DNA from: a phage
Strand: one strand, 5' to 3'
DNA: 64,000 bases
Sequence record: PX393110.1
Below are positions 2,355 to 61,893 of this stretch, in pieces (positions within the stretch are counted from its first letter, which is position 1; each line of letters opens with the position of its first letter). A program made the position numbers and the translations under genes. Below the pieces are notes generated by a model that saw nothing but the letters and a program-made list of their open reading frames with translations, did not search any database and had not been told where the DNA came from.

Positions 2355-2378
2355 ACAAAAATGGGGTCCGAAGACCCC
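2355..2378 (-). terminator. Rho-independent terminator (GGGGTC-loop-GACCCC with T-run on minus strand)
   Basis: Perfect 6-bp GC-rich stem 2363-2368/2373-2378 with a 4-nt loop, followed on the minus strand by ATTTTTG; lies directly 3' of the 921-aa gene. Confidence 0.6.
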
Positions 2379-2384
2379 ATCTAA

Positions 2385-5150
2385 CTACTCTTCCATAAAC
2401 GTAGTTACGTTATTGGAAAGGTAGGCACCGATTTTAGTATTATATCTCTGGAACGTAGGTACATGAGTAACCAGGATGATGTGATTAACCGGAATGTCCT
2501 GGAGAGCATCGATAGCTATGTCCAGAGTATTCACATCCAGATTCTTCAACGACTCATCCAGAATCAGGCATCCAGCACCTTTACTAAGGCTAATCAGCTT
2601 ACCGATGAACAGTACGTCCACCAGGTTCTGCTGACCACCAGAGAGATCAGAATACGGAATCAGGAACTCACCGACTTTGTATTGAACATCAAAGTCAATC
2701 TTGATATTTCCATTAGCCTGTTCACGAACGGTAGAGATGACCATATCACCACCAGTCATCATCGCAGCCACTTCCTTAAAGATAGAAGCAGTTACGTCAC
2801 CGCTATTAGTGAACAGATTCTGATACTCCACCAGCTTCTGATACTTAGGCTGAAGAGTAGCCAGCTCAGAGTTAGCCTTATCCAGCTTCGTCTGAGCATC
2901 GTCCATACGAGACTTAAGACTACGAAGAGTAGCCATAGCTCCGATAGTGGAGTTAATCTCGATAAGCTCTTGTTCCAGCTTAGCGACTTCCTCTTCCAGA
3001 ACTTGCACGGAGGAATAGGACTTAGTCTTATTCTTAAGCACTTCCACATCGCTATTGACGGTATGAATCTTCTGGCGAAGAGTGGCCACATCGTTTAGCA
3101 GACCGGACTTACGACGGAGTTCGACTAATTCGTTATTCTTAAGAGCCAGCTTCTGTCGGATTTCATCAGACTTAGGAGCCTTACTTATCTCAGCTTCCAC
3201 AGCATCCAACTTAGACACAGATACAGATCCCTGTGTCTCGAGCTCATCCATCTTACTTCTGATAGAGCTCTGTACCTGCTTAATGTCCTCTTCCTTAAGA
3301 GACTGTTTACAGGTAGGACAGGTAGTGGGAATATTCCGCATTTCTGTCTCTAACTTAGTCAACTCCTGTTCCAGACGAGTCAACTCCTTAGTTAGAGATT
3401 CGCTCTGGTTATGGAGCGAACGAATATTCCCTTCTACTTCCGACACTTCGGCATCTAGCAGAGTAATTTCGCCACGGACATTAGCGAGTGCGGAGTTAAC
3501 CTCTTCTTCGCTAAAGTCTATATTGAACGCAGCCAGCGAGTCTTCCAACATCTGAAGACTCTGTAGCTTACTATCCAAATTACCCAGCTCCCGGATCTTC
3601 TGACGAATATCATCAATCTGAGGAAGGATTCGGGATTTAGCCTCTTCCAGATCACTTACGTCCTTGAGTCTGGAGAAATCGTGATCCTCCATCGTCTTAA
3701 GGACTTCTTCCTGAGCAGTAACCTGAGTCTGGAGATTACCGATCTCTACCTTACAGTTCTTAGCCGAGGCCTTTGCGACAGCTTCGTACTGGTTAATTAC
3801 GGTAAGACCAAGCATCTTCGTTATCAGGTTGATACGCTCGTTGAATCCGAACTGGCTAAGGAACGGAGGACTGTTCTGGGAGCGGTACAGAAGATCGAAG
3901 TGTTCGAGGAATGGCAGCATCTCCCAGAGCTTAGCTTCACGCTCACGAATACTTCCGCCATCCATCTCATCGCCATCAATCCAGACTCGGAACGTCTGAC
4001 CACCAGCCCAATGGCGACTGATCAGGAATTCACGACCACCATACTCCAGCATCACTTCTACCAGAAGATGGTCCTGACCGAGTCTCACCACGTTACGAGG
4101 ACTGTCGCTACCAGTTAAGCAGTAGTTCAGAGCTCGTAACAGCGAGGATTTACCATTACCGGTTTCGCCGTAGAGATAAGTCAGACCTTTCTTAAAGTCC
4201 AGCTCCAACTTATCGATGCTACGGAAGTTCTCTACCTTAATGCTATTTAAGGTAAAGTTGAGGTCGAATACCGACTCGGAACGATCAACGTGGGTAGACA
4301 TCTCATCATGGATATCTTTAAGACCTTTAGCCCGAACGACTTTATCGATAACTTCTTCGACATCAATAGACTTAACCGAGATGCGTGAAGCATCCATCAT
4401 CTGAGCTCGTTCACGAACTACCAGATGTGGGTAATTGTCCAATCCGACAGGAACCTCATCTTCCCAGTACATCTTTAAGTACTTAAAGGAATCAGACTCT
4501 ACCGGAACCCGCTGCCAGGAAAGATCTTTGAGATCCAGCAGTACCAGACTGCCTTCCTGACTATCACCCATCCCATGAGGAATAGGCACGTTCACCGAGT
4601 GAGTATGACCGATGCTGATAGGACGGTGGATGTCACCCGCAAATCCCAGATCGTACTTAGTATCGTCGAACTCCTGACCGAACATCGAGGACAGGGTAAT
4701 ATGGCCGATTAGGACATCTACTTTATCCTGGATGAAGCTAAAGTCCTGAGTCGGACGCCAGTCGCTGAAGGCGACCTTACGGCCACCTAAGTTCAGGATC
4801 TTACCATCGACATACTCCGCCTTACCAGCCAGGATCGGCACCAGCGAGTTCTGATAGTGATCAGCATCTACCGATTTGGAGTTAATGTCGTGGTTACCCA
4901 GAATGTAGTAAATCTCGGAGAACTGCTCACCGAGGATGTCCATAAACTGGGAAGTAGCATGTGCAATCTTAGGCTCGTGCTGAGCCTTATGCACCAAGTC
5001 GCCAGCGATAGATAGGCAAGTAACTTTATGTTCCTTACCCATCTCCACCATACGATGAGCCAATCTGATAAACTGCTTTAGCCGAAACCCTTCCGAGTTA
5101 TGTTGCTGAAACTCATGAATATGAATATCAGCAGCAATTAACATTTTCAT
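2385..5150 (-). CDS. Fused Mre11/SbcD-like nuclease and Rad50/SbcC-like ATPase (single 921-aa polypeptide)
   Basis: N-terminal calcineurin-like phosphoesterase motifs (DIHIHE, GDLVH, GNHD, GDIHRP, GHTH); then Walker A GETGNGKSS, a long heptad-rich region with a CPTC zinc-hook, ABC signature LSGGQQ, Walker B CLILDE and H-loop VTHV. RBS GGAG before the ATG at 5150. Confidence 0.75.
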   Translation of the reverse strand: MKMLIAADIHIHEFQQHNSEGFRLKQFIRLAHRMVEMGKEHKVTCLSIAGDLVHKAQHEPKIAHATSQFMDILGEQFSEIYYILGNHDINSKSVDADHYQNSLVPILAGKAEYVDGKILNLGGRKVAFSDWRPTQDFSFIQDKVDVLIGHITLSSMFGQEFDDTKYDLGFAGDIHRPISIGHTHSVNVPIPHGMGDSQEGSLVLLDLKDLSWQRVPVESDSFKYLKMYWEDEVPVGLDNYPHLVVRERAQMMDASRISVKSIDVEEVIDKVVRAKGLKDIHDEMSTHVDRSESVFDLNFTLNSIKVENFRSIDKLELDFKKGLTYLYGETGNGKSSLLRALNYCLTGSDSPRNVVRLGQDHLLVEVMLEYGGREFLISRHWAGGQTFRVWIDGDEMDGGSIREREAKLWEMLPFLEHFDLLYRSQNSPPFLSQFGFNERINLITKMLGLTVINQYEAVAKASAKNCKVEIGNLQTQVTAQEEVLKTMEDHDFSRLKDVSDLEEAKSRILPQIDDIRQKIRELGNLDSKLQSLQMLEDSLAAFNIDFSEEEVNSALANVRGEITLLDAEVSEVEGNIRSLHNQSESLTKELTRLEQELTKLETEMRNIPTTCPTCKQSLKEEDIKQVQSSIRSKMDELETQGSVSVSKLDAVEAEISKAPKSDEIRQKLALKNNELVELRRKSGLLNDVATLRQKIHTVNSDVEVLKNKTKSYSSVQVLEEEVAKLEQELIEINSTIGAMATLRSLKSRMDDAQTKLDKANSELATLQPKYQKLVEYQNLFTNSGDVTASIFKEVAAMMTGGDMVISTVREQANGNIKIDFDVQYKVGEFLIPYSDLSGGQQNLVDVLFIGKLISLSKGAGCLILDESLKNLDVNTLDIAIDALQDIPVNHIILVTHVPTFQRYNTKIGAYLSNNVTTFMEE

Positions 5151-6004
5151 GCCGACTCCAGTATCTTAGCCGTAACGCATCTGTTGTACTTACCCAGTAC
5201 ACCATGGAAATACGGAGGAAATCTGTGACCTGGACAGAACTCTTCCAGAGTCGGTAAGATACGCTGTTGCATCTGTACCTTAGACTCCTGCTCCTTAATG
5301 ATGTTGTGGACTTCGGTATCAGTCAGAATCCTGTCGAGTCGCATTAGCTCCATATTGGAACGAACACGGAACTCTACCGATTGGCTTAGCGAACCATCTT
5401 TGTAAGCGTTAATCGCTTCCTTAACAGTCTTCAAGCCAGTAGCCACTCCTGGAATGTTGTCGGAGCCGTCCCCGACGATGGCTTTGTAGATGAGGTAATC
5501 CTTATGATCATCCAGATCGTAGGTCTTCATCAACCAGGGAAGATCTACTAAACCATCATCCGGATTCAGGACACAAGTATTCTCATTAATGGATAAGTAC
5601 CAGTCTCGGTCTCGTGAGTGTAACATGACCGGACGACCAGAATGAGCATAGTAGTAGCCTAAATCATCGGCTTCCACACCAGACACCTGGATACATTTAA
5701 TACCCAGCGACGGGAAGATCTGCTCGTGAAGAACATTCATAGCAGCCCACAATGCTTCGAAACTCTCGTCGTACTCACGATTGGCCTTATACTCTGGATT
5801 CTTATCCTTAGGTCTGTATCGCCACTTACCCCGATCGTACAGCATGATTAGTTCGGAGCTATATCCGTCTTCCTTAATCAACTTCGCTACACTACCGATA
5901 GTAGAGGCGACTGTAGGACCTAAATCCTGAGACTTACCGGCTGCGAACCAGTTACGAAGCGTCAACCACTGACAATCGACTGGTATTAACGGTATATCAT
6001 TCAT
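5147..6004 (-). CDS. 5'-3' exonuclease / flap endonuclease (RNase H-like, FEN family)
   Basis: GVEADDLGYY and GDGSDNIPGV motifs typical of Pol I-type 5' nucleases (T4 RNase H / T5 D15 class). Confidence 0.75.
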   Translation of the reverse strand: MNDIPLIPVDCQWLTLRNWFAAGKSQDLGPTVASTIGSVAKLIKEDGYSSELIMLYDRGKWRYRPKDKNPEYKANREYDESFEALWAAMNVLHEQIFPSLGIKCIQVSGVEADDLGYYYAHSGRPVMLHSRDRDWYLSINENTCVLNPDDGLVDLPWLMKTYDLDDHKDYLIYKAIVGDGSDNIPGVATGLKTVKEAINAYKDGSLSQSVEFRVRSNMELMRLDRILTDTEVHNIIKEQESKVQMQQRILPTLEEFCPGHRFPPYFHGVLGKYNRCVTAKILESA

Positions 6005-6060: not shown

Positions 6061-7095
6061 TTATTTACGGAATTTGGCGAAGCGAGAGGCAGCACCACCT
6101 TCTTCTTTGTCTTCGTCAGACTTATCGTCGCCGGCATCTTCAGTTTTATCTTCAGATTTGGCGTCAGATTTGTCGTCAGCAGCGTCTTCTTTAGACTCGC
6201 CTTTATCTTCAGACTTATCTTCGGCAGAGCTCGCGTCGGACTTAACATCAGACTTAGCGTCAGATTTGTCGTCGGCTTTCTGATCACCGGACTCTTCCTT
6301 AGATTCTTCGGCCTTAGCCTCTTCTTCAGCTTTAAGCTCTTCGAAGCCATCTTCGCCAACCAGCGGCAGACCTTTAGCCTTACGCTGGGAACGAATTTCG
6401 TCCAGATCTTTACGGACACGCTTGACCAGACCTACGTATTTGTCTTTGTCGAAGCCTTCACGGATGTACGCCTGAGCCAGCGGCTGGTAGGTCTGATCTG
6501 CAACTACCGGATCAGCTTTGCTGAACAGCGGAGTGAAGGTTACAGAACCCTGATTACCACGTACTACGGTAATCTTAACCGGAGAGCCTTTGATGTCTTT
6601 ATCCAGCATACCTTCCAGAACTTCCGGAGAGTCTTCCGCCAGCGCCGTAATGAAGTCGGTCAGTGCGTTAGCCACCTTACCGTTACCGATCACCGCATAC
6701 AGAGTATTCGGCTTCCAGTTATCAGACGGAGTGTCGGTTTTCTGCAGGAAGAAGTAGAACAGGATGTTGTACTTCAGACCGTATTTCCAGTGATTGTATT
6801 CGTTCAGCTCGTCGAGCATGTCATCCAGCTCGGCATAGTTGAAGTTTTCCGGCAGATCTTCACAGTCGGACGGAGTCTGAATACCATAGCTGAAGTAACC
6901 GTGAGTACGGACTTCACGATACAGGTTACCGACGGGGTCAGTTATGATACGACCCTGATGGCTACCTTCCGGAAGGAAAGTCGCGTTAGGGAAGTTACCG
7001 GTACCACCGGATTTCTCTTTACGCTCTTTCATTTTACCTGCGAGGGCTTTGATACCAGCTACGTCTAACTTCTTAACTTGAACTTGTTCAGTCAT
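6061..7095 (-). CDS. Putative ssDNA-binding protein with a long acidic K/D/S/E low-complexity C-terminal tail
   Basis: 344 aa; position between nuclease and helicase genes; C-terminal 90 aa is a repetitive KSD/KSE acidic tract like SSB tails. No zinc-binding motif seen, so function is inferred. Confidence 0.35.
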   Translation of the reverse strand: MTEQVQVKKLDVAGIKALAGKMKERKEKSGGTGNFPNATFLPEGSHQGRIITDPVGNLYREVRTHGYFSYGIQTPSDCEDLPENFNYAELDDMLDELNEYNHWKYGLKYNILFYFFLQKTDTPSDNWKPNTLYAVIGNGKVANALTDFITALAEDSPEVLEGMLDKDIKGSPVKITVVRGNQGSVTFTPLFSKADPVVADQTYQPLAQAYIREGFDKDKYVGLVKRVRKDLDEIRSQRKAKGLPLVGEDGFEELKAEEEAKAEESKEESGDQKADDKSDAKSDVKSDASSAEDKSEDKGESKEDAADDKSDAKSEDKTEDAGDDKSDEDKEEGGAASRFAKFRK

Positions 7096-14978: not shown

Positions 14979-15054
14979 TGGTGGCCCATACTGGTTTCGA
15001 ACCAGTGACCAATCGATTATGAGTCGACTGCTCTCACCACTGAGCTAATGGGCC
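14979..15054 (-). tRNA. tRNA-Met (anticodon CAT; elongator-type, or Ile2 if lysidinylated), CCA encoded
   Basis: Hand-folded cloverleaf: acceptor GGCCCAT/ATGGGCC, D-stem GCTC/GAGC, anticodon stem GTCGA/TCGAT, loop CTCATAA, T-stem ACTGG/CCAGT, T-loop TTCGAAA, 3' ACCA; 76 nt. Confidence 0.85.
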
Positions 15055-15199: not shown

Positions 15200-15276
15200 T
15201 GGTACTCCCTACAGGATTCGAACCTGTGACCAATAGCTTAGAAGGCTACTGCTCTATCCAGCTGAGCTAAGGGAGC
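15200..15276 (-). tRNA. tRNA-Arg (anticodon TCT), CCA encoded
   Basis: Hand-folded cloverleaf: acceptor GCTCCCT/AGGGAGT (G1-U72), D-stem GCTC/GAGC, anticodon stem GTAGC/GCTAT, loop CTTCTAA, T-stem ACAGG/CCTGT, T-loop TTCGAAT; 77 nt. Confidence 0.85.
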
Positions 15277-16268: not shown

Positions 16269-16811
16269 TTAGACGCTCGCCTCAGACACTTTAACAGCCT
16301 TTGGAACTGTAAAAAGAGCGGGTTTATACCATTCGGGAGTGCGGTAGAAAGTAATGGTACGACCCTCTTTCTCCCAGATATAGTATTTATCGTTCAGGTA
16401 GTTACGATACTTCTCGTAAACTGTTTCGCCAGGAGCACCTGCCACACACGCATAAGGTGTCATGTCAGTCTCCGGACCGACCTTCAAGTTCTTAGGCAGT
16501 TTGCTGAGTCGCGACAGAATAATATCTGTGGCATGCATACGACCGGTACGTTCATAGAACAGGATACACAGATAGTTAGCCAGCTCTTTAACGAAGTTGT
16601 AGTTACCGGAAGATTCACGGACCCAGCGTGCTGATGGGTGATTTACGTGAGTCTGTTTGTAAATACCCTCGATAGCTTGATCGCCATCCAGAACATGATG
16701 AGCTGTGGACAACAGCTGAGCACATTCGATAATCATTTTATTCTGGTGCATTGGCATACAATGGTCCATAGCACATTCTAACGCATCTTCGTGAGTACGG
16801 AAAATATTCAC
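16269..16811 (-). CDS. hypothetical protein (180 aa; GTG start)
   Basis: ORF track; AGGAG 8 nt upstream of the GTG at 16811. Confidence 0.5.
   Translation of the reverse strand: MNIFRTHEDALECAMDHCMPMHQNKMIIECAQLLSTAHHVLDGDQAIEGIYKQTHVNHPSARWVRESSGNYNFVKELANYLCILFYERTGRMHATDIILSRLSKLPKNLKVGPETDMTPYACVAGAPGETVYEKYRNYLNDKYYIWEKEGRTITFYRTPEWYKPALFTVPKAVKVSEASV
16290..16321 (-). promoter_or_regulatory. Conserved promoter-like motif, copy 8 (overlaps the 3' end of the upstream CDS)
   Basis: TTTAACAGCCTTTGGAACTGTAAAAAGAGCGG; the last codons of the 16269-16811 ORF read through it. Confidence 0.45.
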
Positions 16812-16896
16812 TATAATTACTCCTAACGTGGTTTGCTTACTTTAAGTCTCTCGTAAAAGATTTAGAGTAAGCATCGGAGGTAACCACCTCCGACAC

Positions 16897-16928
16897 TTTA
16901 ACAGCCTTTCGACGGTACAAAAGAGCGG
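16897..16928 (-). promoter_or_regulatory. Conserved promoter-like motif, copy 9, followed by a 5' hairpin GGAGGTGGTTACCTCC
   Basis: TTTAACAGCCTTTCGACGGTACAAAAGAGCGG; the hairpin at 16876-16891 would sit at the predicted 5' end of the transcript. Confidence 0.5.
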
Positions 16929-16930
16929 TT

Positions 16931-17086
16931 TTAAATCTTACATGCGTCCCCGCAGTCGTCGTCACCAGGCTGGCTGATAACTTCGTCTACGTTAACCATG
17001 CGATCTTCGACACGCTTAGATGCTTCGTCGAGTTCTTCCTGAGAAGGAATATTATTGAAGTCCAACTCTTCAGCAGATTTGCTCAT
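16931..17086 (-). CDS. Small acidic protein (51 aa; start refined)
   Basis: The track ORF 16931-17299 overlaps the neighbouring gene in another frame; the ATG at 17086 has GAGGAA upstream; product MSKSAEELDFNN...DDDCGDACKI. Confidence 0.4.
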   Translation of the reverse strand: MSKSAEELDFNNIPSQEELDEASKRVEDRMVNVDEVISQPGDDDCGDACKI

Positions 17087-17093
17087 AGTTTCC

Positions 17094-17429
17094 TCATAAG
17101 AACATTTTGACAAGATGTTTAGTACCGTTGATAGCAGCTTTCTTAGCAGCCGACTTAACATGAGCTTTAACTTTCTTATGTAAAGTCTTGGACTTAGCCT
17201 TATTTTTAAGGAGTCGTCCGGCAGCTTTAGCCCTACGCTTGATTCTGTTAGCTGATTCGGAAATAGCAATACCTTCCTCATCAGTAACATCATCAACATT
17301 AGACGAAGCTATCATCAGTAACTGATCATCGGTTAAACCAGCTGCTATGGTTTTGACGAATATTCCTTCATCGACATCACCAACAGCATTAAGGAGATCC
17401 TGTGATTTTGACATAATCTTCCCATACAT
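17094..17429 (-). CDS. hypothetical protein (111 aa, lysine-rich C-terminus)
   Basis: ORF track; AAGGAAG 7 nt upstream of the ATG at 17429. Confidence 0.45.
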   Translation of the reverse strand: MYGKIMSKSQDLLNAVGDVDEGIFVKTIAAGLTDDQLLMIASSNVDDVTDEEGIAISESANRIKRRAKAAGRLLKNKAKSKTLHKKVKAHVKSAAKKAAINGTKHLVKMFL

Positions 17430-17883
17430 TAATTACTTCCTTACCCAGAGATTTAGCATGGGTTACACAGTTACCTGTACCACCCTTGCTGCCATCCCAT
17501 AAGGCTAATCCCTTCTGACTACGGTTAACCATGTAACGGTTACGCACCATCATCTTGAAAGAATCATACCCAGGCTCGGAAACTATAATTGTGCGACGAC
17601 TTCTCCTGCAGAGCTCAGTCCATTTTTCTACATCTGCAGATCGCCACATCTTGGGCTGGTCAATCATAGGGACTGCTGCGAAATATGGTATTCCGAGGTT
17701 AGCACATGCTTGAGCACATGCCATGTCCCATCCTAAAGCCATACCCACGAACCAGCAGTCGACCTTATTTTCTTCGGTCAACCTCTGGATATGATGTTCG
17801 GCAAACTGGGTAAGCTGATCATGGCTAAAGATATCCCAGCCACCCAGTTTATCTGGCCTATGACCAGTGACGAACATAAACAT
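17389..17883 (-). CDS. Possible SLOG/YpsA-like Rossmann-fold protein
   Basis: 164 aa; TGHRP near the N-terminus and WDGSKGGTGN near the C-terminus, recalled as typical of YpsA/DUF1273-type SLOG domains; assignment from memory only. Confidence 0.3.
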   Translation of the reverse strand: MFMFVTGHRPDKLGGWDIFSHDQLTQFAEHHIQRLTEENKVDCWFVGMALGWDMACAQACANLGIPYFAAVPMIDQPKMWRSADVEKWTELCRRSRRTIIVSEPGYDSFKMMVRNRYMVNRSQKGLALWDGSKGGTGNCVTHAKSLGKEVINVWEDYVKITGSP

Positions 17884-18224
17884 TACTTCTTCTCTATCTT
17901 GGCCTGCTTAGCCTTAACTAAAGCCAATGCGTTAGCCAGTTTAGCAGAAGTATCCTGCGGACCATCTTCTTCGAGCTGTTTCTTCAGGGACTCCATACGA
18001 TCGGTAGTCCCTTTAGTATCCATCTCGATTAATTCGTTGATGGTCGACCCGCCGACGTTAGGTAACTTGCCGAGTTGCGACAAATCCTTAACTTCGGGGA
18101 TCTTAACGTGAAGTTGAATAGACTGGGATGCTCTCGCGAATGACCCAGCACGACGATTGTCTCCTACCTTATTATATAGGGAAGATAGGTTACCCAGGAA
18201 CGTAATGATATCAGCAGTTTTCAT
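17883..18224 (-). CDS. hypothetical protein with a helix-hairpin-helix-like motif (start refined)
   Basis: Track start at 18239 is a TTG; the ATG at 18224 has GGAGGA 6 nt upstream; LGKLPNVGGSTINELIE is HhH-like. Confidence 0.45.
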   Translation of the reverse strand: MKTADIITFLGNLSSLYNKVGDNRRAGSFARASQSIQLHVKIPEVKDLSQLGKLPNVGGSTINELIEMDTKGTTDRMESLKKQLEEDGPQDTSAKLANALALVKAKQAKIEKK

Positions 18225-18242
18225 ATTTGATTCCTCCAACGG

Positions 18243-18274
18243 TTTAACAGCCTTTGGACCTTACAAAAGAGCGG
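18243..18274 (-). promoter_or_regulatory. Conserved promoter-like motif, copy 10 (at the strand-switch region)
   Basis: TTTAACAGCCTTTGGACCTTACAAAAGAGCGG, about 20 nt upstream of the ATG at 18224. Confidence 0.5.
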
Positions 18275-18420
18275 TTTTTATTCAAAAAGAGTGTTAAAAT
18301 TAGGTTTTTGAGCTTTACAGGACGCCCCTGCGCTCTAAAGATAGGCCTCAAAAGGGTGTTTTTGTGAAGGTTGTCCGAGCCCCGTCCGGGACGTCTTCAA
18401 CTATAAACAGGAGAAATACA

Positions 18421-18894
18421 ATGGGCGAGTTAGCTAAGCAAAACTTAAGTACTATTCAAAAGGGTCTTTCCTTAGTTAATTCGGAGGGTTCTGAATCCGT
18501 TAACGTCAAAGCCCTACAAGGTAAAGAGATAGGCTTACAGATTCTCCAGCTAGGTCTGGCTGAGTCTGAGGCTAACCGAGTAGCCAAGCTTAACGGGATT
18601 ATCGAGATCCTCGAAAAGAAAATCTTTGATCCTGAGCGTCTGGACAGACTCACCGAGAAGGAGCAGATCGAGAGATATCAACTGGCATTAGCTAGTGCAT
18701 CTCAGTCGGCAGCATTCGTTAAATCGACCATTGGTTCGATTAACTGGACAGCTATCGAAGTATCTCTGCTGAGTCTGGCTTCCGCCATAGAGACTGCCAA
18801 TGAAGGTCAGTCTCCTAAGGATCGTAAAGATATGTCTACTATCGCCAATAACTTGATTAAGCAATTGGCGGAAGGCATTGGTCCTAAGGGGTAA
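18421..18894 (+). CDS. Putative terminase small subunit (by position)
   Basis: First gene of the plus-strand block, immediately upstream of the large terminase; ATG at 18421 with AGGAGA RBS (the track start at 18364 lacks an RBS). Confidence 0.35.
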   Translation: MGELAKQNLSTIQKGLSLVNSEGSESVNVKALQGKEIGLQILQLGLAESEANRVAKLNGIIEILEKKIFDPERLDRLTEKEQIERYQLALASASQSAAFVKSTIGSINWTAIEVSLLSLASAIETANEGQSPKDRKDMSTIANNLIKQLAEGIGPKG

Positions 18895-18897
18895 ACC

Positions 18898-20724
18898 ATG
18901 ACTGATGCATTAGATGAGTTTATTGAAGCATGTGGCTCTAGACTCGAAGCTATGCATCAGTTAGCGTTGATGAGTGGCTACGAGGAGCGGGTTCCGACGA
19001 TCCAGGATTTCATAATGGATCCGTACTACCTGGGTAAGTCTCTGGTAGATGCTGACGGTGTCTGCTCGGTCTATCCTATATGGATGGATGCTCTAGCTAA
19101 GATTTACCCTACTCCTTACACTTCACCAGCTGTAGAGATTTATCTAACTGGTGGTATCGGTCTGGGTAAGTCAACTGCTGCTAAGATTATCACTCTCTAC
19201 GACCTGTGCAAATTGCTATGTCTTAGAGATCCTCGCGCTCATTTTAAACTTCTGCCATCCACAGTAATTCGTTGGATGTTGATGAACGCCACTAAAGGTC
19301 TATCCTACGATGTACTCTACGCAGAGATCATCGAGTGGATAGAGAACAGTCCATTCTTCAAAGGTAAGATGACTGGTGGTAAGAATCCTCGTACTTTGTT
19401 CATTAAGAATGTGGACTTAGGATTCGGTTCTCGTGGTCAGGATGCTCTGGGGCAGGCTACCGTAGGTGCTATCTTCTCAGAGATAAACGACATGACCGTA
19501 GTTCATGGTCAGGCAGAAGATAACTTCGACACCATCTATACTCGTATGAACTCTCGTTTCGGGGGTAAAGGGGTAGAGATGATTGGCCACTTGATTCTAG
19601 ACTCTTCGAATAAGGGAAACCGTTCCTTTATCGATGTTCGTCTAGAGGATAAAGCCAAGAAAGGAATTAACGACTATCTGTTATTCAGATATGCCCACTG
19701 GGAAGCTAAATGGCACCTCGGAGGGTATTCTGGGGAAATGTTCTACGTCTATGCTGGTGACCAGTATCGAGATCCGTTTATCTTTGATGAGAATACTCTC
19801 AAGATTAAAGACGGTCTGGAGCCATCTCGTATTATCTCTGTACCTGTTGAACATAGACAGGAATTCGAGACTAACATTGTTAAGTCTCTCAGGGATCTTG
19901 CTGGTGTGTCTACATTCGGTACATGGTCGTTCATCTCGTCCTACGAGGTGCTTAACCGAGCAGCTGACCACATTAACCCTACTGAATCTAACGTGGTAGT
20001 TCTGGACTTCTTCGATAAGGAGCAGACTCTTCACCAGACTATAGATGTCCCCAGACTTGCCTTCCTTAATAAGAAGGATCGGTTCATCCATATTGACTTG
20101 GGTCTTAAGAACGACTCAACTGGTATAGCCTGTTCTTATCTCGATGGTTATGTAGACCAAGAGACCTATGATCCTCTGACCAGTACTCGCATGGTTACTC
20201 GTGAACCTAAGATTGTTACTGAGTGGGCATTAGAAATTACCTGCCAGCCTGGTCAGGAAGTCCCTATCTACAAGATTAAGAACTTCTTAATAGAAGCATC
20301 TCAGCAAGGTTACCCAATTAAAATGGTAACCACAGATGGATACCAATCCACGAACTTACGTCAGGATTTAACTCTGGCTGGGTTCGAGACTGCTCTGCTA
20401 TCTGTAGACCGGACTAAAGACCCGTATAACTACTTAAGAAACTCGATTCTCGAAGGTCGCAGCACTATTCCTGCTGTACCTAAACTGATCAAGGAGCTTA
20501 AAGAGTTGGAGGAAGGAGAAGGTAAGTTCGACCACCCTCCGTCGGGGAGTAAAGATATCGCGGATGCTGTCTGCGGATCTCAGTGGTCAGTTAAAGAGAA
20601 TATCCATAAGATAGGGTCTACTGCCACGGTTGAAGATCTTCAAGTTGCACTCCACGAACTTAATAAGTCTAGGGATGCGAAGGAGATGTTTCGGAACATT
20701 ATTAAGCAACGAGTGGGTGGCTAA
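18898..20724 (+). CDS. terL: Terminase large subunit
   Basis: 608 aa; Walker A GGIGLGKST in the N-terminal ATPase domain; C-terminal nuclease-like domain with conserved acidic residues (HIDLGLKNDSTG, VTTDGYQS). Confidence 0.8.
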   Translation: MTDALDEFIEACGSRLEAMHQLALMSGYEERVPTIQDFIMDPYYLGKSLVDADGVCSVYPIWMDALAKIYPTPYTSPAVEIYLTGGIGLGKSTAAKIITLYDLCKLLCLRDPRAHFKLLPSTVIRWMLMNATKGLSYDVLYAEIIEWIENSPFFKGKMTGGKNPRTLFIKNVDLGFGSRGQDALGQATVGAIFSEINDMTVVHGQAEDNFDTIYTRMNSRFGGKGVEMIGHLILDSSNKGNRSFIDVRLEDKAKKGINDYLLFRYAHWEAKWHLGGYSGEMFYVYAGDQYRDPFIFDENTLKIKDGLEPSRIISVPVEHRQEFETNIVKSLRDLAGVSTFGTWSFISSYEVLNRAADHINPTESNVVVLDFFDKEQTLHQTIDVPRLAFLNKKDRFIHIDLGLKNDSTGIACSYLDGYVDQETYDPLTSTRMVTREPKIVTEWALEITCQPGQEVPIYKIKNFLIEASQQGYPIKMVTTDGYQSTNLRQDLTLAGFETALLSVDRTKDPYNYLRNSILEGRSTIPAVPKLIKELKELEEGEGKFDHPPSGSKDIADAVCGSQWSVKENIHKIGSTATVEDLQVALHELNKSRDAKEMFRNIIKQRVGG

Positions 20725-22302
20725 ATGGCAGAAAACGAAGTGGTCTCTAAGCAAGACTTAGATGACAAACCTGGTTCTCGCCAGGAGGTCTTAGCAAAGT
20801 TGCTAGACGATACCATCACTATGAAGCATAGCGATGGATTGTTGGGCACGGTACAGGCTTACCTTACCGATCGCCTTACCAATATGGTAACCACTCGTGA
20901 AAAGTATTTCAACGAGCTGGCGAGATTTCGCTATAACTATATCACAGCTGGTATCTATGATATCATCTGTAATGACGTGCTCACCAATACGGATGATGGT
21001 GGATTCGTCATAGAAATTGAAGGTGATGAAGAACTGACTCGGGAGGCAAATGAGCTAATTAAAGCTCTAGCTATCCCAGACTTCCTCACTTCCATTTTGC
21101 CGGAGTTACTGCATTATGGATCATACCCCTTAAGACCGTCACTGGAAGATGGCGAGGGATTGATTGGGTTGGTGGATGATTTTGATCCTCGTGATGTTAT
21201 CGCAGTAACTGATTCATCCGGCCTTCCTATTTTCTTCTTCGTAAACTATACGACGAAGGATGCTGGGTATATAGACTATGAGTCTCGTCAGAAAATGGAG
21301 TATCTAGGCCCTCAAGAGGTATCTTACCTCTCTCTGGATCAGAACTTCATTAAGCTGCCGATTCCCGATAAAGTCACTGCCCAGATGAAGCGTAAAATCA
21401 CGGAAGAGCTGGGTGAAGATGAACCCATGGTTAAGCTCATGGGTAAGTCGATTAAAATTCGTTCGTCCTTATCATTCTTATGGGGATCTCTGGATAAGCT
21501 CAAGAATATCTTGATGCTGGATAAGGTTAACGTCTATAAGACGCTGGCTAACCTCCTAAGTCCGTCTGTAATCGGTGTTCCTCTTCCGAACAATAACGAC
21601 ATTAAGCAGATGAAGTCTATAGTCAACGACTATGACCAAATCATTAACAGTACTAACCTGTTTGCTGCTGATATGAGTAACCTCCAGTTTAATCTGCAGG
21701 ATATCGTATCAGTTAAAGTCGTTCCTATCTCTGGAGATCGGTCTGTACCTCAGATCCTGGATACTGGTAAGTCGGATAACACTATCGATCCGGAGAAGAT
21801 CAGATCCGAGTTAGAGGTTCTGTTACAGTCCTATGGTATTCCTCTGGAATTATTCCTTGGAAGCCTTTCCTCTAAGGATAACCTAAGGACGAATATTCGT
21901 TACGCTAAGAAGATCAAGCGCATCGGTAAGAGTCTGTGTAAATGGCTGCAGTATCTGCTGCTGTTACACTTCGGCTTTAAATACGAAAATCTGGATCTAG
22001 AGTTATCTGAAATTAAGGTAACCCTGAAGTCCTCGATTAACGTAGATGCTCTTGAGAATATGGAGACTCAAGATCTTCTTATCACAAGTATTAATGGTAT
22101 GACTGGAATGCTGGATTCTCTGAAGAACGAGATCGAGAACTCCAATTATACTATTGATAACGATGCTCTGCTTAAGGTAGTCGCGGATACTCTCGCAGAT
22201 ATAGGCTCTCCGTTCCATGGAGTAATTAAGCTTAAGTCTGAGGTACCAGTAACCCAGCAGACTCCTCCTGCTCCCCCAGAAGATGGTGAAGAGAATGAAT
22301 AA
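20725..22302 (+). CDS. Portal protein
   Basis: 525 aa, directly downstream of the large terminase with start/stop overlap; acidic C-terminus; assignment by size and synteny. Confidence 0.6.
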   Translation: MAENEVVSKQDLDDKPGSRQEVLAKLLDDTITMKHSDGLLGTVQAYLTDRLTNMVTTREKYFNELARFRYNYITAGIYDIICNDVLTNTDDGGFVIEIEGDEELTREANELIKALAIPDFLTSILPELLHYGSYPLRPSLEDGEGLIGLVDDFDPRDVIAVTDSSGLPIFFFVNYTTKDAGYIDYESRQKMEYLGPQEVSYLSLDQNFIKLPIPDKVTAQMKRKITEELGEDEPMVKLMGKSIKIRSSLSFLWGSLDKLKNILMLDKVNVYKTLANLLSPSVIGVPLPNNNDIKQMKSIVNDYDQIINSTNLFAADMSNLQFNLQDIVSVKVVPISGDRSVPQILDTGKSDNTIDPEKIRSELEVLLQSYGIPLELFLGSLSSKDNLRTNIRYAKKIKRIGKSLCKWLQYLLLLHFGFKYENLDLELSEIKVTLKSSINVDALENMETQDLLITSINGMTGMLDSLKNEIENSNYTIDNDALLKVVADTLADIGSPFHGVIKLKSEVPVTQQTPPAPPEDGEENE

Positions 22303-60513: not shown

Positions 60514-61137
60514 TTAGAAACGATCGCGACCTATGATTGGTGCGACTGGTTTAAAGTCAGTCTGGTCGTAACCTTTGTAAAGGTCGTAGCCACCACCAGC
60601 AACCTCAGTAAAGTAAATCTGACCGATGCGCATGTTAGAACGCAGTCGGATAGTGTTAGGGCTTAGGTTAACAATCTCTAGAGTAAATGCTCCCTTGAAT
60701 CCAAAGTCCCCGAAACCTGCACTGACATGGCTCAGTATTCCCAGACGACCCATAGTGCTGCGACCGTCGTAATGCTGACAGAATGCCACACCACGGTCTA
60801 CAGTGCTGTTACGGTATCGTGGGTCATAATGCTCGAACCACTTCTCAGGCAACATGGTAGTACAGTCGATACGTTCAGATGCTGAGCCTAAGATGAACTC
60901 CCCAGGTTTAAGATCGTAGTATAGTGCCTCTACCTCGCGATACTCCGGAAGAGTACATGGTTTATAGGGATCTACTACATGGCCATCAGGCATCTTTTGA
61001 GGAACCAGGAAGAACGGAGCTAAGCGTACATCTACACTATTCTGTCCGATTCGTGGTTCCTGATTGTCCAGATAACTGTGATAGGTCCATAATCCTTGAG
61101 TAATTGCCTGCTCAATATAAGATTTACCAAGGATCAT
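60514..61137 (-). CDS. dcd: dCTP deaminase family protein
   Basis: VDVRLAP and GRSTMGRLGILSHVSAGFGDFGFKGAFTLEIVNLS align with the dCTP deaminase/dUTPase-fold signature. Confidence 0.65.
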   Translation of the reverse strand: MILGKSYIEQAITQGLWTYHSYLDNQEPRIGQNSVDVRLAPFFLVPQKMPDGHVVDPYKPCTLPEYREVEALYYDLKPGEFILGSASERIDCTTMLPEKWFEHYDPRYRNSTVDRGVAFCQHYDGRSTMGRLGILSHVSAGFGDFGFKGAFTLEIVNLSPNTIRLRSNMRIGQIYFTEVAGGGYDLYKGYDQTDFKPVAPIIGRDRF

Positions 61138-61422: not shown

Positions 61423-61893
61423 TTACTTAATCCCGGAATGGCCAAACCCACCGTCGCCACGTTCAGAAACATCAGAGAATTTATCCACAAGCTGGAGCTC
61501 TGGATGGATAACGGGAAGAAACACCATTTGAGCGATACGGTCGCCGTGGTTAATAACGAAAGATTCGTTACTACGGTTCCACACAGACACCATCAGTTCT
61601 CCTTGATAGCCGGAGTCGATAAGACCAACCAAGTTACCCAGTACGATGCCATTTTTATGGCCGAGGCCGCTGCGGGGAAGAATCACAGAAGCGATGTTCG
61701 GATCGCCGATGTTGATCGCTAGACCGGTAGGGACCAGGATAGTTTCGCCAGGATTTACAGCGATTTTATCGATTTCGTCAGTCTTAATCATCGCACGAAG
61801 ATCAAGACCAGCATCACCAGCTTTAGCGTATTTCGGTAACTCCAGAGAGTCGTCCCAGTTAATAGTTTTCTTTACTTGAACTACGGTCATCAT
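61423..61893 (-). CDS. dut: dUTPase (deoxyuridine 5'-triphosphate nucleotidohydrolase)
   Basis: Canonical motifs [30 protein letters not shown] and C-terminal [10 protein letters not shown]. Confidence 0.9.

Follow-up and report, generated by a model that had tools for sequence, protein, structure and literature searches.

The 64,000-nucleotide stretch of phage DNA analyzed here (sequence record PX393110.1; "the window") contains, at 2385..5150, a gene in which an earlier note on the same DNA had recognized an Mre11/SbcD nuclease and a Rad50/SbcC ATPase joined in one reading frame. Does this gene encode a genuine single-chain Mre11-Rad50 (SbcD-SbcC) enzyme, or does its continuity mislead? The list of open reading frames (ORFs) bears out an uninterrupted frame of 921 codons, with an ATG start and a TAG stop at 2385–2387, and supplies the strand, which had not been given and is minus. 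Conserved motifs, together with Pfam, Protein Data Bank (PDB) and PHROG profile matches, support the presence of both components in the one 921-residue polypeptide. We consider it highly probable (roughly 0.85) that its product is a true single-chain Mre11-Rad50, and the phage's only complex of that kind.

The nuclease and ATPase halves

The protein begins with an Mre11/SbcD phosphodiesterase core (residues 1–216; 4503..5150, minus strand, as for all parts of the gene described below). The nuclease motifs map to DIH (8–10, with D8 and H10), GD (50–51), GNHD (85–88), H150, and GDIH (172–175, with D173 and H175). Conservation was counted in an alignment of 115 diverse family members, whose columns average 23% identity and in which the positions of phosphoesterase motifs I–V are 96–100% conserved: H87, H150, G172, and H175 are invariant, and D8, H10, G50, D51, and G85 are each present in at least 113 members. 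Pfam Metallophos spans residues 1–184 (E = 1.5e-8). A profile of residues 1–298, built from 25 diverse members, matched PDB chains of the SbcD/Mre11 clade only, including E. coli SbcD (1.8e-11), T. maritima Mre11 (3.9e-10), P. furiosus Mre11 (4.5e-9), and M. jannaschii Mre11, which aligns to profile positions 3–255; the PHROG profile phrog_100 ("SbcD-like") also matches this part of the protein (3.6e-15). By these profile comparisons the N-terminal part appears closer to Mre11/SbcD than to other metallophosphatases.

The earlier note had placed all phosphoesterase motifs within the first ~260 residues. They are present, and their extent needs correction: the last ends at residue 175, and the nuclease together with a small beta region ends at ~249. 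The string "GHTHS" at 181–184 varies among family members and is no motif. The small beta region (residues 217–249; 4404..4502) lies directly behind the nuclease core and may be a much reduced capping domain.

The Rad50/SbcC half is built from two ATPase lobes separated by a coiled coil. The N-terminal lobe (residues 298–450; 3801..4259) carries the Walker A motif G328-x4-GKS335 (GETGNGKS, 328–335). An ascending arm (residues 451–605; 3336..3800; model helices 451–487, 499–539, and 548–605) leads to the zinc hook (residues 606–619; 3294..3335), whose C611-P-T-C614 motif is encoded at 3309–3320, and a descending arm (residues 620–778; 2817..3293; model helices 620–657, 662–708, and 715–778) returns to the C-terminal lobe (residues 779–921; 2388..2816), which contains the signature LSGGQQ (836–841, with S837-G-G-Q840), the Walker B motif LILDE (862–866, with D865-E866), and the H-loop TH (895–896, with H896). 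Every element of the complete Rad50/SbcC ATPase that had been claimed was therefore located. Across the family G331, G333, K334, C611, S837, and D865 are invariant, while C614 and E866 are each found in 114 of the 115 members, Q840 in 110, and H896 in 102. Such complete or near-complete conservation of the catalytic and hook residues means that, as judged from this alignment, purifying selection acts on both active sites and on the zinc hook.

A central CxxC zinc hook in an antiparallel coil separates Rad50/SbcC from SMC, RecN, and RecF proteins, and the database comparisons point the same way. Pfam matches begin at residue 301 (AAA_23, E = 6e-14; SMC_N, E = 2e-11), with a further match to Rad50_zn_hook at 609–639 that lies under the gathering cut-off (E = 2.5e-4). 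When a full-length profile of the 115 members was compared with the PDB, M. jannaschii Rad50 was the top match (7e-37), followed by P. furiosus Rad50 (4e-33) and E. coli SbcC (8e-31), and SMC proteins ranked behind Rad50/SbcC; phrog_77 ("SbcC-like") matched residues 294–915 (8e-50). An AlphaFold2 model (monomer, 10 family sequences) had a mean predicted local distance difference test (pLDDT) score of 82, and a Foldseek search with this model returned C. thermophilum Rad50 as the top match. By profile ranking, Rad50/SbcC proteins are thus nearer to the C-terminal part than other SMC-like ATPases are. Its coil is short, as had been proposed, but not by the measure given: the spacing between Walker A and the signature is 501 residues (335 to 837) rather than ~330, a figure that fits instead the coiled-coil region, which is about 328 residues long in the AlphaFold model (451–778).

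The junction and the spread of the fused form

Between the two halves lie three short segments. The first is a flexible linker (residues 250–263; 4362..4403) with the lowest conservation in the protein (mean 0.21) and pLDDT values below 50 at 250–258. It is followed by two short helices (residues 264–285; 4296..4361; model helices 264–274 and 278–285) with conserved positions at I268, V272, L277 (91/115), and H281 (98/115). From the order of Mre11 domains described by Yoshida et al. (2011; PMC3175470) and the position of these helices in the model, we regard them as a candidate for the Rad50-binding helix-loop-helix of Mre11; the sequence match of this region to the C-terminal region of SbcD was not significant (profile domain 3). 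A junction linker of 12 residues (286–297; 4260..4295) then connects the helix pair to the first Rad50 strand. The Rad50 part opens with a conserved D296-x-N-F299 (F299 in 107 and D296 in 87 of the 115 members), and residue 299 aligns with residue 3 of Rad50. In the T. maritima complex about 28 Å separate the Mre11 C-terminus from the Rad50 N-terminus, a distance estimated to need 9–12 linker residues (PMC3175470). The 12-residue connector agrees with that estimate, so a fusion of this kind is feasible. Over the whole family the distance from H175 to K334 varies only between 153 and 185 residues.

The fused form is widespread among phages. The nearest sequenced phage, Escherichia phage vB_EcoM_IME392, is 88.6% identical to the window in nucleotide sequence over the gene and carries the same 921-residue ORF (AXY86089.1; 94% amino acid identity), labeled "hypothetical protein." An uninterrupted fused ORF is also present in EP_H11. 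Using tblastn we found 20 phage records in which the match extended over 80% or more of the query; nearly all of these matches were unbroken, their identity was 23–38%, and the hosts belonged to Acinetobacter, Ralstonia, Rhizobium (Kleczkowskaviridae), Vibrio, Cobetia, Thermus, and Yersinia. When 1.84 billion representative proteins were searched exhaustively with HMMER, at least 215 clusters (formed at 50% identity) reached E ≤ 1e-30. Among the 150 top matches the majority align to the query end to end in a single stretch, and 143 of 154 proteins from this search measure 800–1099 residues. In IMG/VR, a search with a 10-sequence alignment identified 33 full-length fused loci on contigs of 15–350 kb. 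The fusion is thus not sporadic in phages but ancient, inherited inside a large phage lineage that it marks.

The sole relative that looked split is a misassembled record. Rhizobium phage RHph_TM39 (MN988559.1, 90216–94229) gave three tblastn pieces over 4 kb and has two coding sequences, as a naturally split relative would; in this record the first ~440 residues are duplicated and a run of Ns lies inside the second copy, so the split is an assembly artifact.

Some fused members have their catalytic motifs interrupted by inteins or intein-like insertions, which counts in favor of a real, functional protein. In protein P0053 (locus L135, 10001–14035) an intein sits within the Rad50 Walker A motif (GNNG/C...VHN/SGKSS); in P0146 an insertion bearing LAGLIDADG directly follows GSNGSGK, with no Pfam match to an intein domain; and in P0051 an insertion lies just past the nuclease "PIQH," beside nuclease motif V. 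These three long matches (1227–1344 residues) had been candidates for homologues of Mimivirus R555 and were rejected as such, being phage members with an intein or homing-endonuclease insertion. A word-indexed protein search with the large alignment returned mainly SMC proteins and no named R555. Separately, seven more distant proteins of 1000–1570 residues (P0163, P0166, P0167, P0169, P0172, P0177, and P0263), on contigs of up to 375 kb, combine Metallophos with SMC_N or AAA_23 and may, from this domain content, be further fused Mre11-Rad50 lineages.

The carriers of the fusion overlap with a group defined by other means. On the basis of a YerA41-type DNA polymerase, a study of T-hypermodified genomes placed IME392, RP13, phiLo, RHph_TM30, YerA41, and Carin-5 together; IME392 is listed there among the phages with this polymerase that were examined for thymidine hypermodification derived from 5-hydroxymethyldeoxyuridine (5-hmdU) (PMC12686479). 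All six carry the fusion by tblastn, and it therefore appears to have been inherited along with the YerA41-type replication module. A bolder proposal, which we hold to be rather unlikely, is that the fusion is a shared derived trait of one very large and deep-branching lineage with YerA41-type family-A polymerases, several members of which hypermodify thymidine; that the tether permitted loss of most of the capping domain, leaving a minimal machine perhaps fitted to modified phage DNA; and that this lineage may be the source of the marine "R555-like" fusions reported in 2011. Were this so, no natural single-chain Mre11-Rad50 would be smaller, and the protein would make a handy model of nuclease–ATPase communication.

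The family is poorly served by current annotation. The Rad50 half matches positions 291–949 of phrog_77 (967 positions) and the Mre11 half matches positions 29–305 of phrog_100 (989 positions), and both profiles seem to include fused proteins although each is named for one subunit. These names explain the one-sided annotations in GenBank, where relatives appear as SbcC-like, SbcD-like, "coil containing protein," or "SMC family ATPase." Recognizing the fusion corrects such one-subunit labels as well as that of "hypothetical protein."

Gene neighborhood, competing explanations and proposed mechanism

The gene stands among replication and recombination genes. Immediately upstream, a gene for a FEN-like 5'-3' exonuclease (5147..6004, minus strand; Pfam 5_3_exonuc_N) ends in a TGA that runs into the start codon of the fused gene (ATGA overlap), with GGAG 5 nt before that ATG. 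Further upstream on the same strand are genes for unknown proteins of 344 and 346 residues, a RusA resolvase, a DnaB-like helicase, and an SF2-type helicase, and downstream lies the large subunit of topoisomerase II. Starting 5 nt past the stop codon is a terminator-like hairpin, AUGGGGUC-UUCG-GACCCCAU followed by UUUU (2357..2380, minus strand), with a predicted RNA folding energy of −16.8 kcal/mol (z = −3.7); it was not among the predictions of a consensus terminator scan. The order helicase, DnaB, RusA, 344-residue protein, FEN, fusion, topoisomerase B is kept in IMG/VR loci down to ~31% identity of the fused protein. FEN followed by the fusion is found in IME392, in IMG/VR loci L005–L012, and in L135; the order of the module is partly kept in a metagenomic contig. 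No second Mre11/Rad50-like gene emerged when all ORFs of at least 50 residues, from the window and from the entire genome of IME392, were searched with hidden Markov models (HMMs). One coiled-coil match, in a 481-residue ORF that aligns with the structural-gene region of IME392, was meaningless.

Several observations weigh against a genuine, fully active single-chain enzyme. In motif III, GQHD (64/115) is more frequent than the GNHD (51/115) of the window protein, which has N86, and in motif V 110 of the 115 members have GDxH (D173 in the window protein), GHxH being kept in five; these changes may affect catalysis. The counterpart of the capping domain is far smaller than in solved Mre11/SbcD structures. 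For the Q-loop, the window protein has Q425 (YRSQ), but this column holds Q in only 39 of the 115 members, a low count that faulty alignment may explain. Within the window no gene was recognized as that of a recombinase, and a role in recombination-dependent replication is suggested by analogy with T4 gp46/gp47.

With these points in mind we weighed four other explanations. The frame could be fused and still yield two products if, near residue 290, translation also began internally or a protease cut the chain, so that a Rad50-like protein was freed. An in-frame ATG at codon 284 and the low-confidence linker close by would fit this, yet codons 251, 252, and 284 all lack a Shine-Dalgarno-like sequence ahead of them, Met284 is not kept in relatives, and the H175-to-K334 spacing is tightly constrained, as expected of a folded tether. 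We find two products improbable.

We give equally little credence to a conflict function, in which the protein would be an OLD-, Gabija-, Lamassu-, Wadjet-, or Septu-like effector, a counter-defence factor, or a weapon degrading host DNA. T4 gp46/gp47, for which resection in recombination-dependent replication and break repair is established, also take part in host DNA breakdown, and the heads of Lamassu LmuB, JetC, PtuA, and GajA were among the structural matches. Their scores were lower, however, the top matches being Rad50/SbcC and Mre11/SbcD themselves, and the CxxC hook in the middle of the antiparallel coil is conserved as described above. The gene is moreover the sole one of Mre11/Rad50 type in the window and IME392, and its setting amid FEN, RusA, helicase, and topoisomerase genes is syntenic across distant relatives. 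A pattern-seeded scan of 185,579 cellular genomes (one per bacterial or archaeal species) gave no match spanning both halves among its best 80, which is suggestive only.

Slightly less probable again is a fusion that has lost catalysis in one of its halves and serves, for example, as a scaffold without nuclease activity. The N or Q of motif III and the Asp replacing the first His of GHxH in motif V could be read in this way. The remaining metal ligands are nevertheless invariant or nearly so, Asp and Gln are still able to bind metal, and GHxH is retained in five members; the ATPase motifs are likewise invariant. Finally, the scenario that the earlier note had itself raised, in which a sequencing or assembly artifact deleted a stop or frameshift between two genes, has a negligible chance of being correct and can be set aside, since the same unbroken ORF recurs in hundreds of independent assemblies (IME392, EP_H11, phages of seven further host genera, 33 IMG/VR loci, and 215 clusters), D296 and F299 are conserved at the junction, both alternative frames there are dense with stop codons, and a homopolymer search of the gene gave no run of six or more A/T or five or more G/C.

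If the gene does encode a genuine single-chain Mre11-Rad50, two copies would pair through their Mre11 nuclease domains and, with ATP bound, through their Rad50 heads. Through dimerization via both domains, the homodimer would mimic the canonical M2R2 complex with its stoichiometry fixed at 1:1. The ~155-residue arms would terminate in a CxxC hook sharing Zn2+ with the partner chain, and the helix pair 264–285 would stand in for the Rad50-binding helix-loop-helix of Mre11. Once ATP-bound heads clamp a DNA end, the disordered segment 250–263 could let the nuclease dimer swing from a resting to a cutting position, and the enzyme would cut or resect ends and hairpins. Resected ends may then feed recombination-dependent replication, and the repair of breaks in the phage genome, as with T4 gp46/gp47, with the neighboring, presumably translationally coupled FEN-like exonuclease, the RusA resolvase, the helicases, and topoisomerase II as possible partners. 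The finding leaves the understanding of this pathway unchanged. Its main value lies in annotation and in a compact model enzyme from a relative of coliphages: a single chain of 921 residues, its stoichiometry fixed and its coils short, would lend itself to structural and single-molecule study of how the Mre11 nuclease is gated by ATP binding in Rad50.

Other features of the window were recorded alongside. The 344-residue protein (6061–7095, minus strand) has no Pfam or PHROG match, and its C-terminus is an acidic low-complexity tail rich in Asp, Ser, and Lys; the order of its gene, FEN, and the fused gene is retained in distant IMG/VR loci (33–38% identity). This protein might serve as a partner in recombination or single-strand binding. 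Genes for a dCTP deaminase-like protein and a dUTPase lie at 60514–61137 and 61423–61893 (minus strand), and IME392 additionally encodes a thymidylate-synthase homologue. Two tRNA genes, tRNA-Met (CAT) at 14979–15054 and tRNA-Arg (TCT) at 15200–15276, are also on the minus strand. The segment 43530–45846 has no megablast match of at least 800 bases in IME392, its flanks being 92–95% identical, and is probably a swapped receptor-binding module because the unmatched IME392 stretch carries tail-fibre genes. In IME392, 16457–21418 (locus L132) holds genes annotated as RNA polymerase beta-like and beta-prime-like subunits, a family X polymerase, and a DNA ligase, which fall outside the part of that genome corresponding to the window.

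Known fusions and two-subunit systems

The description of this architecture as unusual holds relative to T4, T5, and bacteria, but it has precedent. Yoshida, Claverie and Ogata (2011, Virol J 8:427; PMC3175470) documented Mre11→Rad50 fusions in nature, describing Mimivirus R555 and twelve more cases, including Bacillus phage 0305phi8-36, Clostridium kluyveri and Deferribacter plasmids, and some eukaryotes, together with 249 homologues from marine metagenomes on scaffolds with phage-like genes. The window protein is thus not unprecedented: its architecture is already known as a class, of which it is a new, largely unannotated member belonging to a big phage family. Later literature yielded no paper describing the fusion in tailed phages, and phage-specific searches gave only the 2011 paper.

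The window protein resembles the 2011 fusions in placing an N-terminal Mre11-like nuclease before a Rad50-like ATPase in one polypeptide, and in having a spacer of capping/helix-loop-helix length and a short linker ahead of the Rad50 part. Mimivirus and the Bacillus phage carry the fused version only (PMC3175470), as do the window and IME392. The differences are in detail. The R555 coil is similar in length to those of cellular homologues (PMC3175470), whereas the arms of the window protein are short at ~155 residues, and the 0305phi8-36 protein is without one ATPase segment and the capping/helix-loop-helix part (PMC3175470), whereas the window protein is complete. Because the 2011 fusions are polyphyletic and fall outside the canonical clades (PMC3175470), the family of the window protein may have an independent fusion origin; the likeness drawn here is one of architecture and, for R555 and 0305phi8-36, of published description.

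A broad survey of jumbo phages treated SbcC and SbcD as separate partner proteins (PMC7824862). T4 gp47 and gp46 are two polypeptides from two genes, whereas the window protein is a single chain. The resemblance to T4 lies in the best PHROG matches of the two halves (phrog_100 and phrog_77), the short coiled coil, the replication and recombination context, and, by analogy, a presumed role in end processing. In T4-like and Staphylococcus K-like phages tblastn covers the Rad50 half only, from residue 290–324 to 902 at most, at about 22–24% identity.

With E. coli SbcCD and the archaeal and bacterial Mre11-Rad50 complexes (PDB 6s6v, 3av0/5f3w, 3qg5, and 1ii7) the window protein shares nuclease motifs I–V, Walker A and B, the signature, the H-loop, and the CxxC hook. 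In those cellular systems the subunits are separate and are held together only via the Mre11 helix-loop-helix on the Rad50 coiled coil, the capping domain is bigger, and the coils of SbcC (1048 residues) are much longer. Motif V likewise sets them apart, being GHxH in cellular SbcCD/Mre11 (GHIH in SbcD) and GDxH in the window protein.

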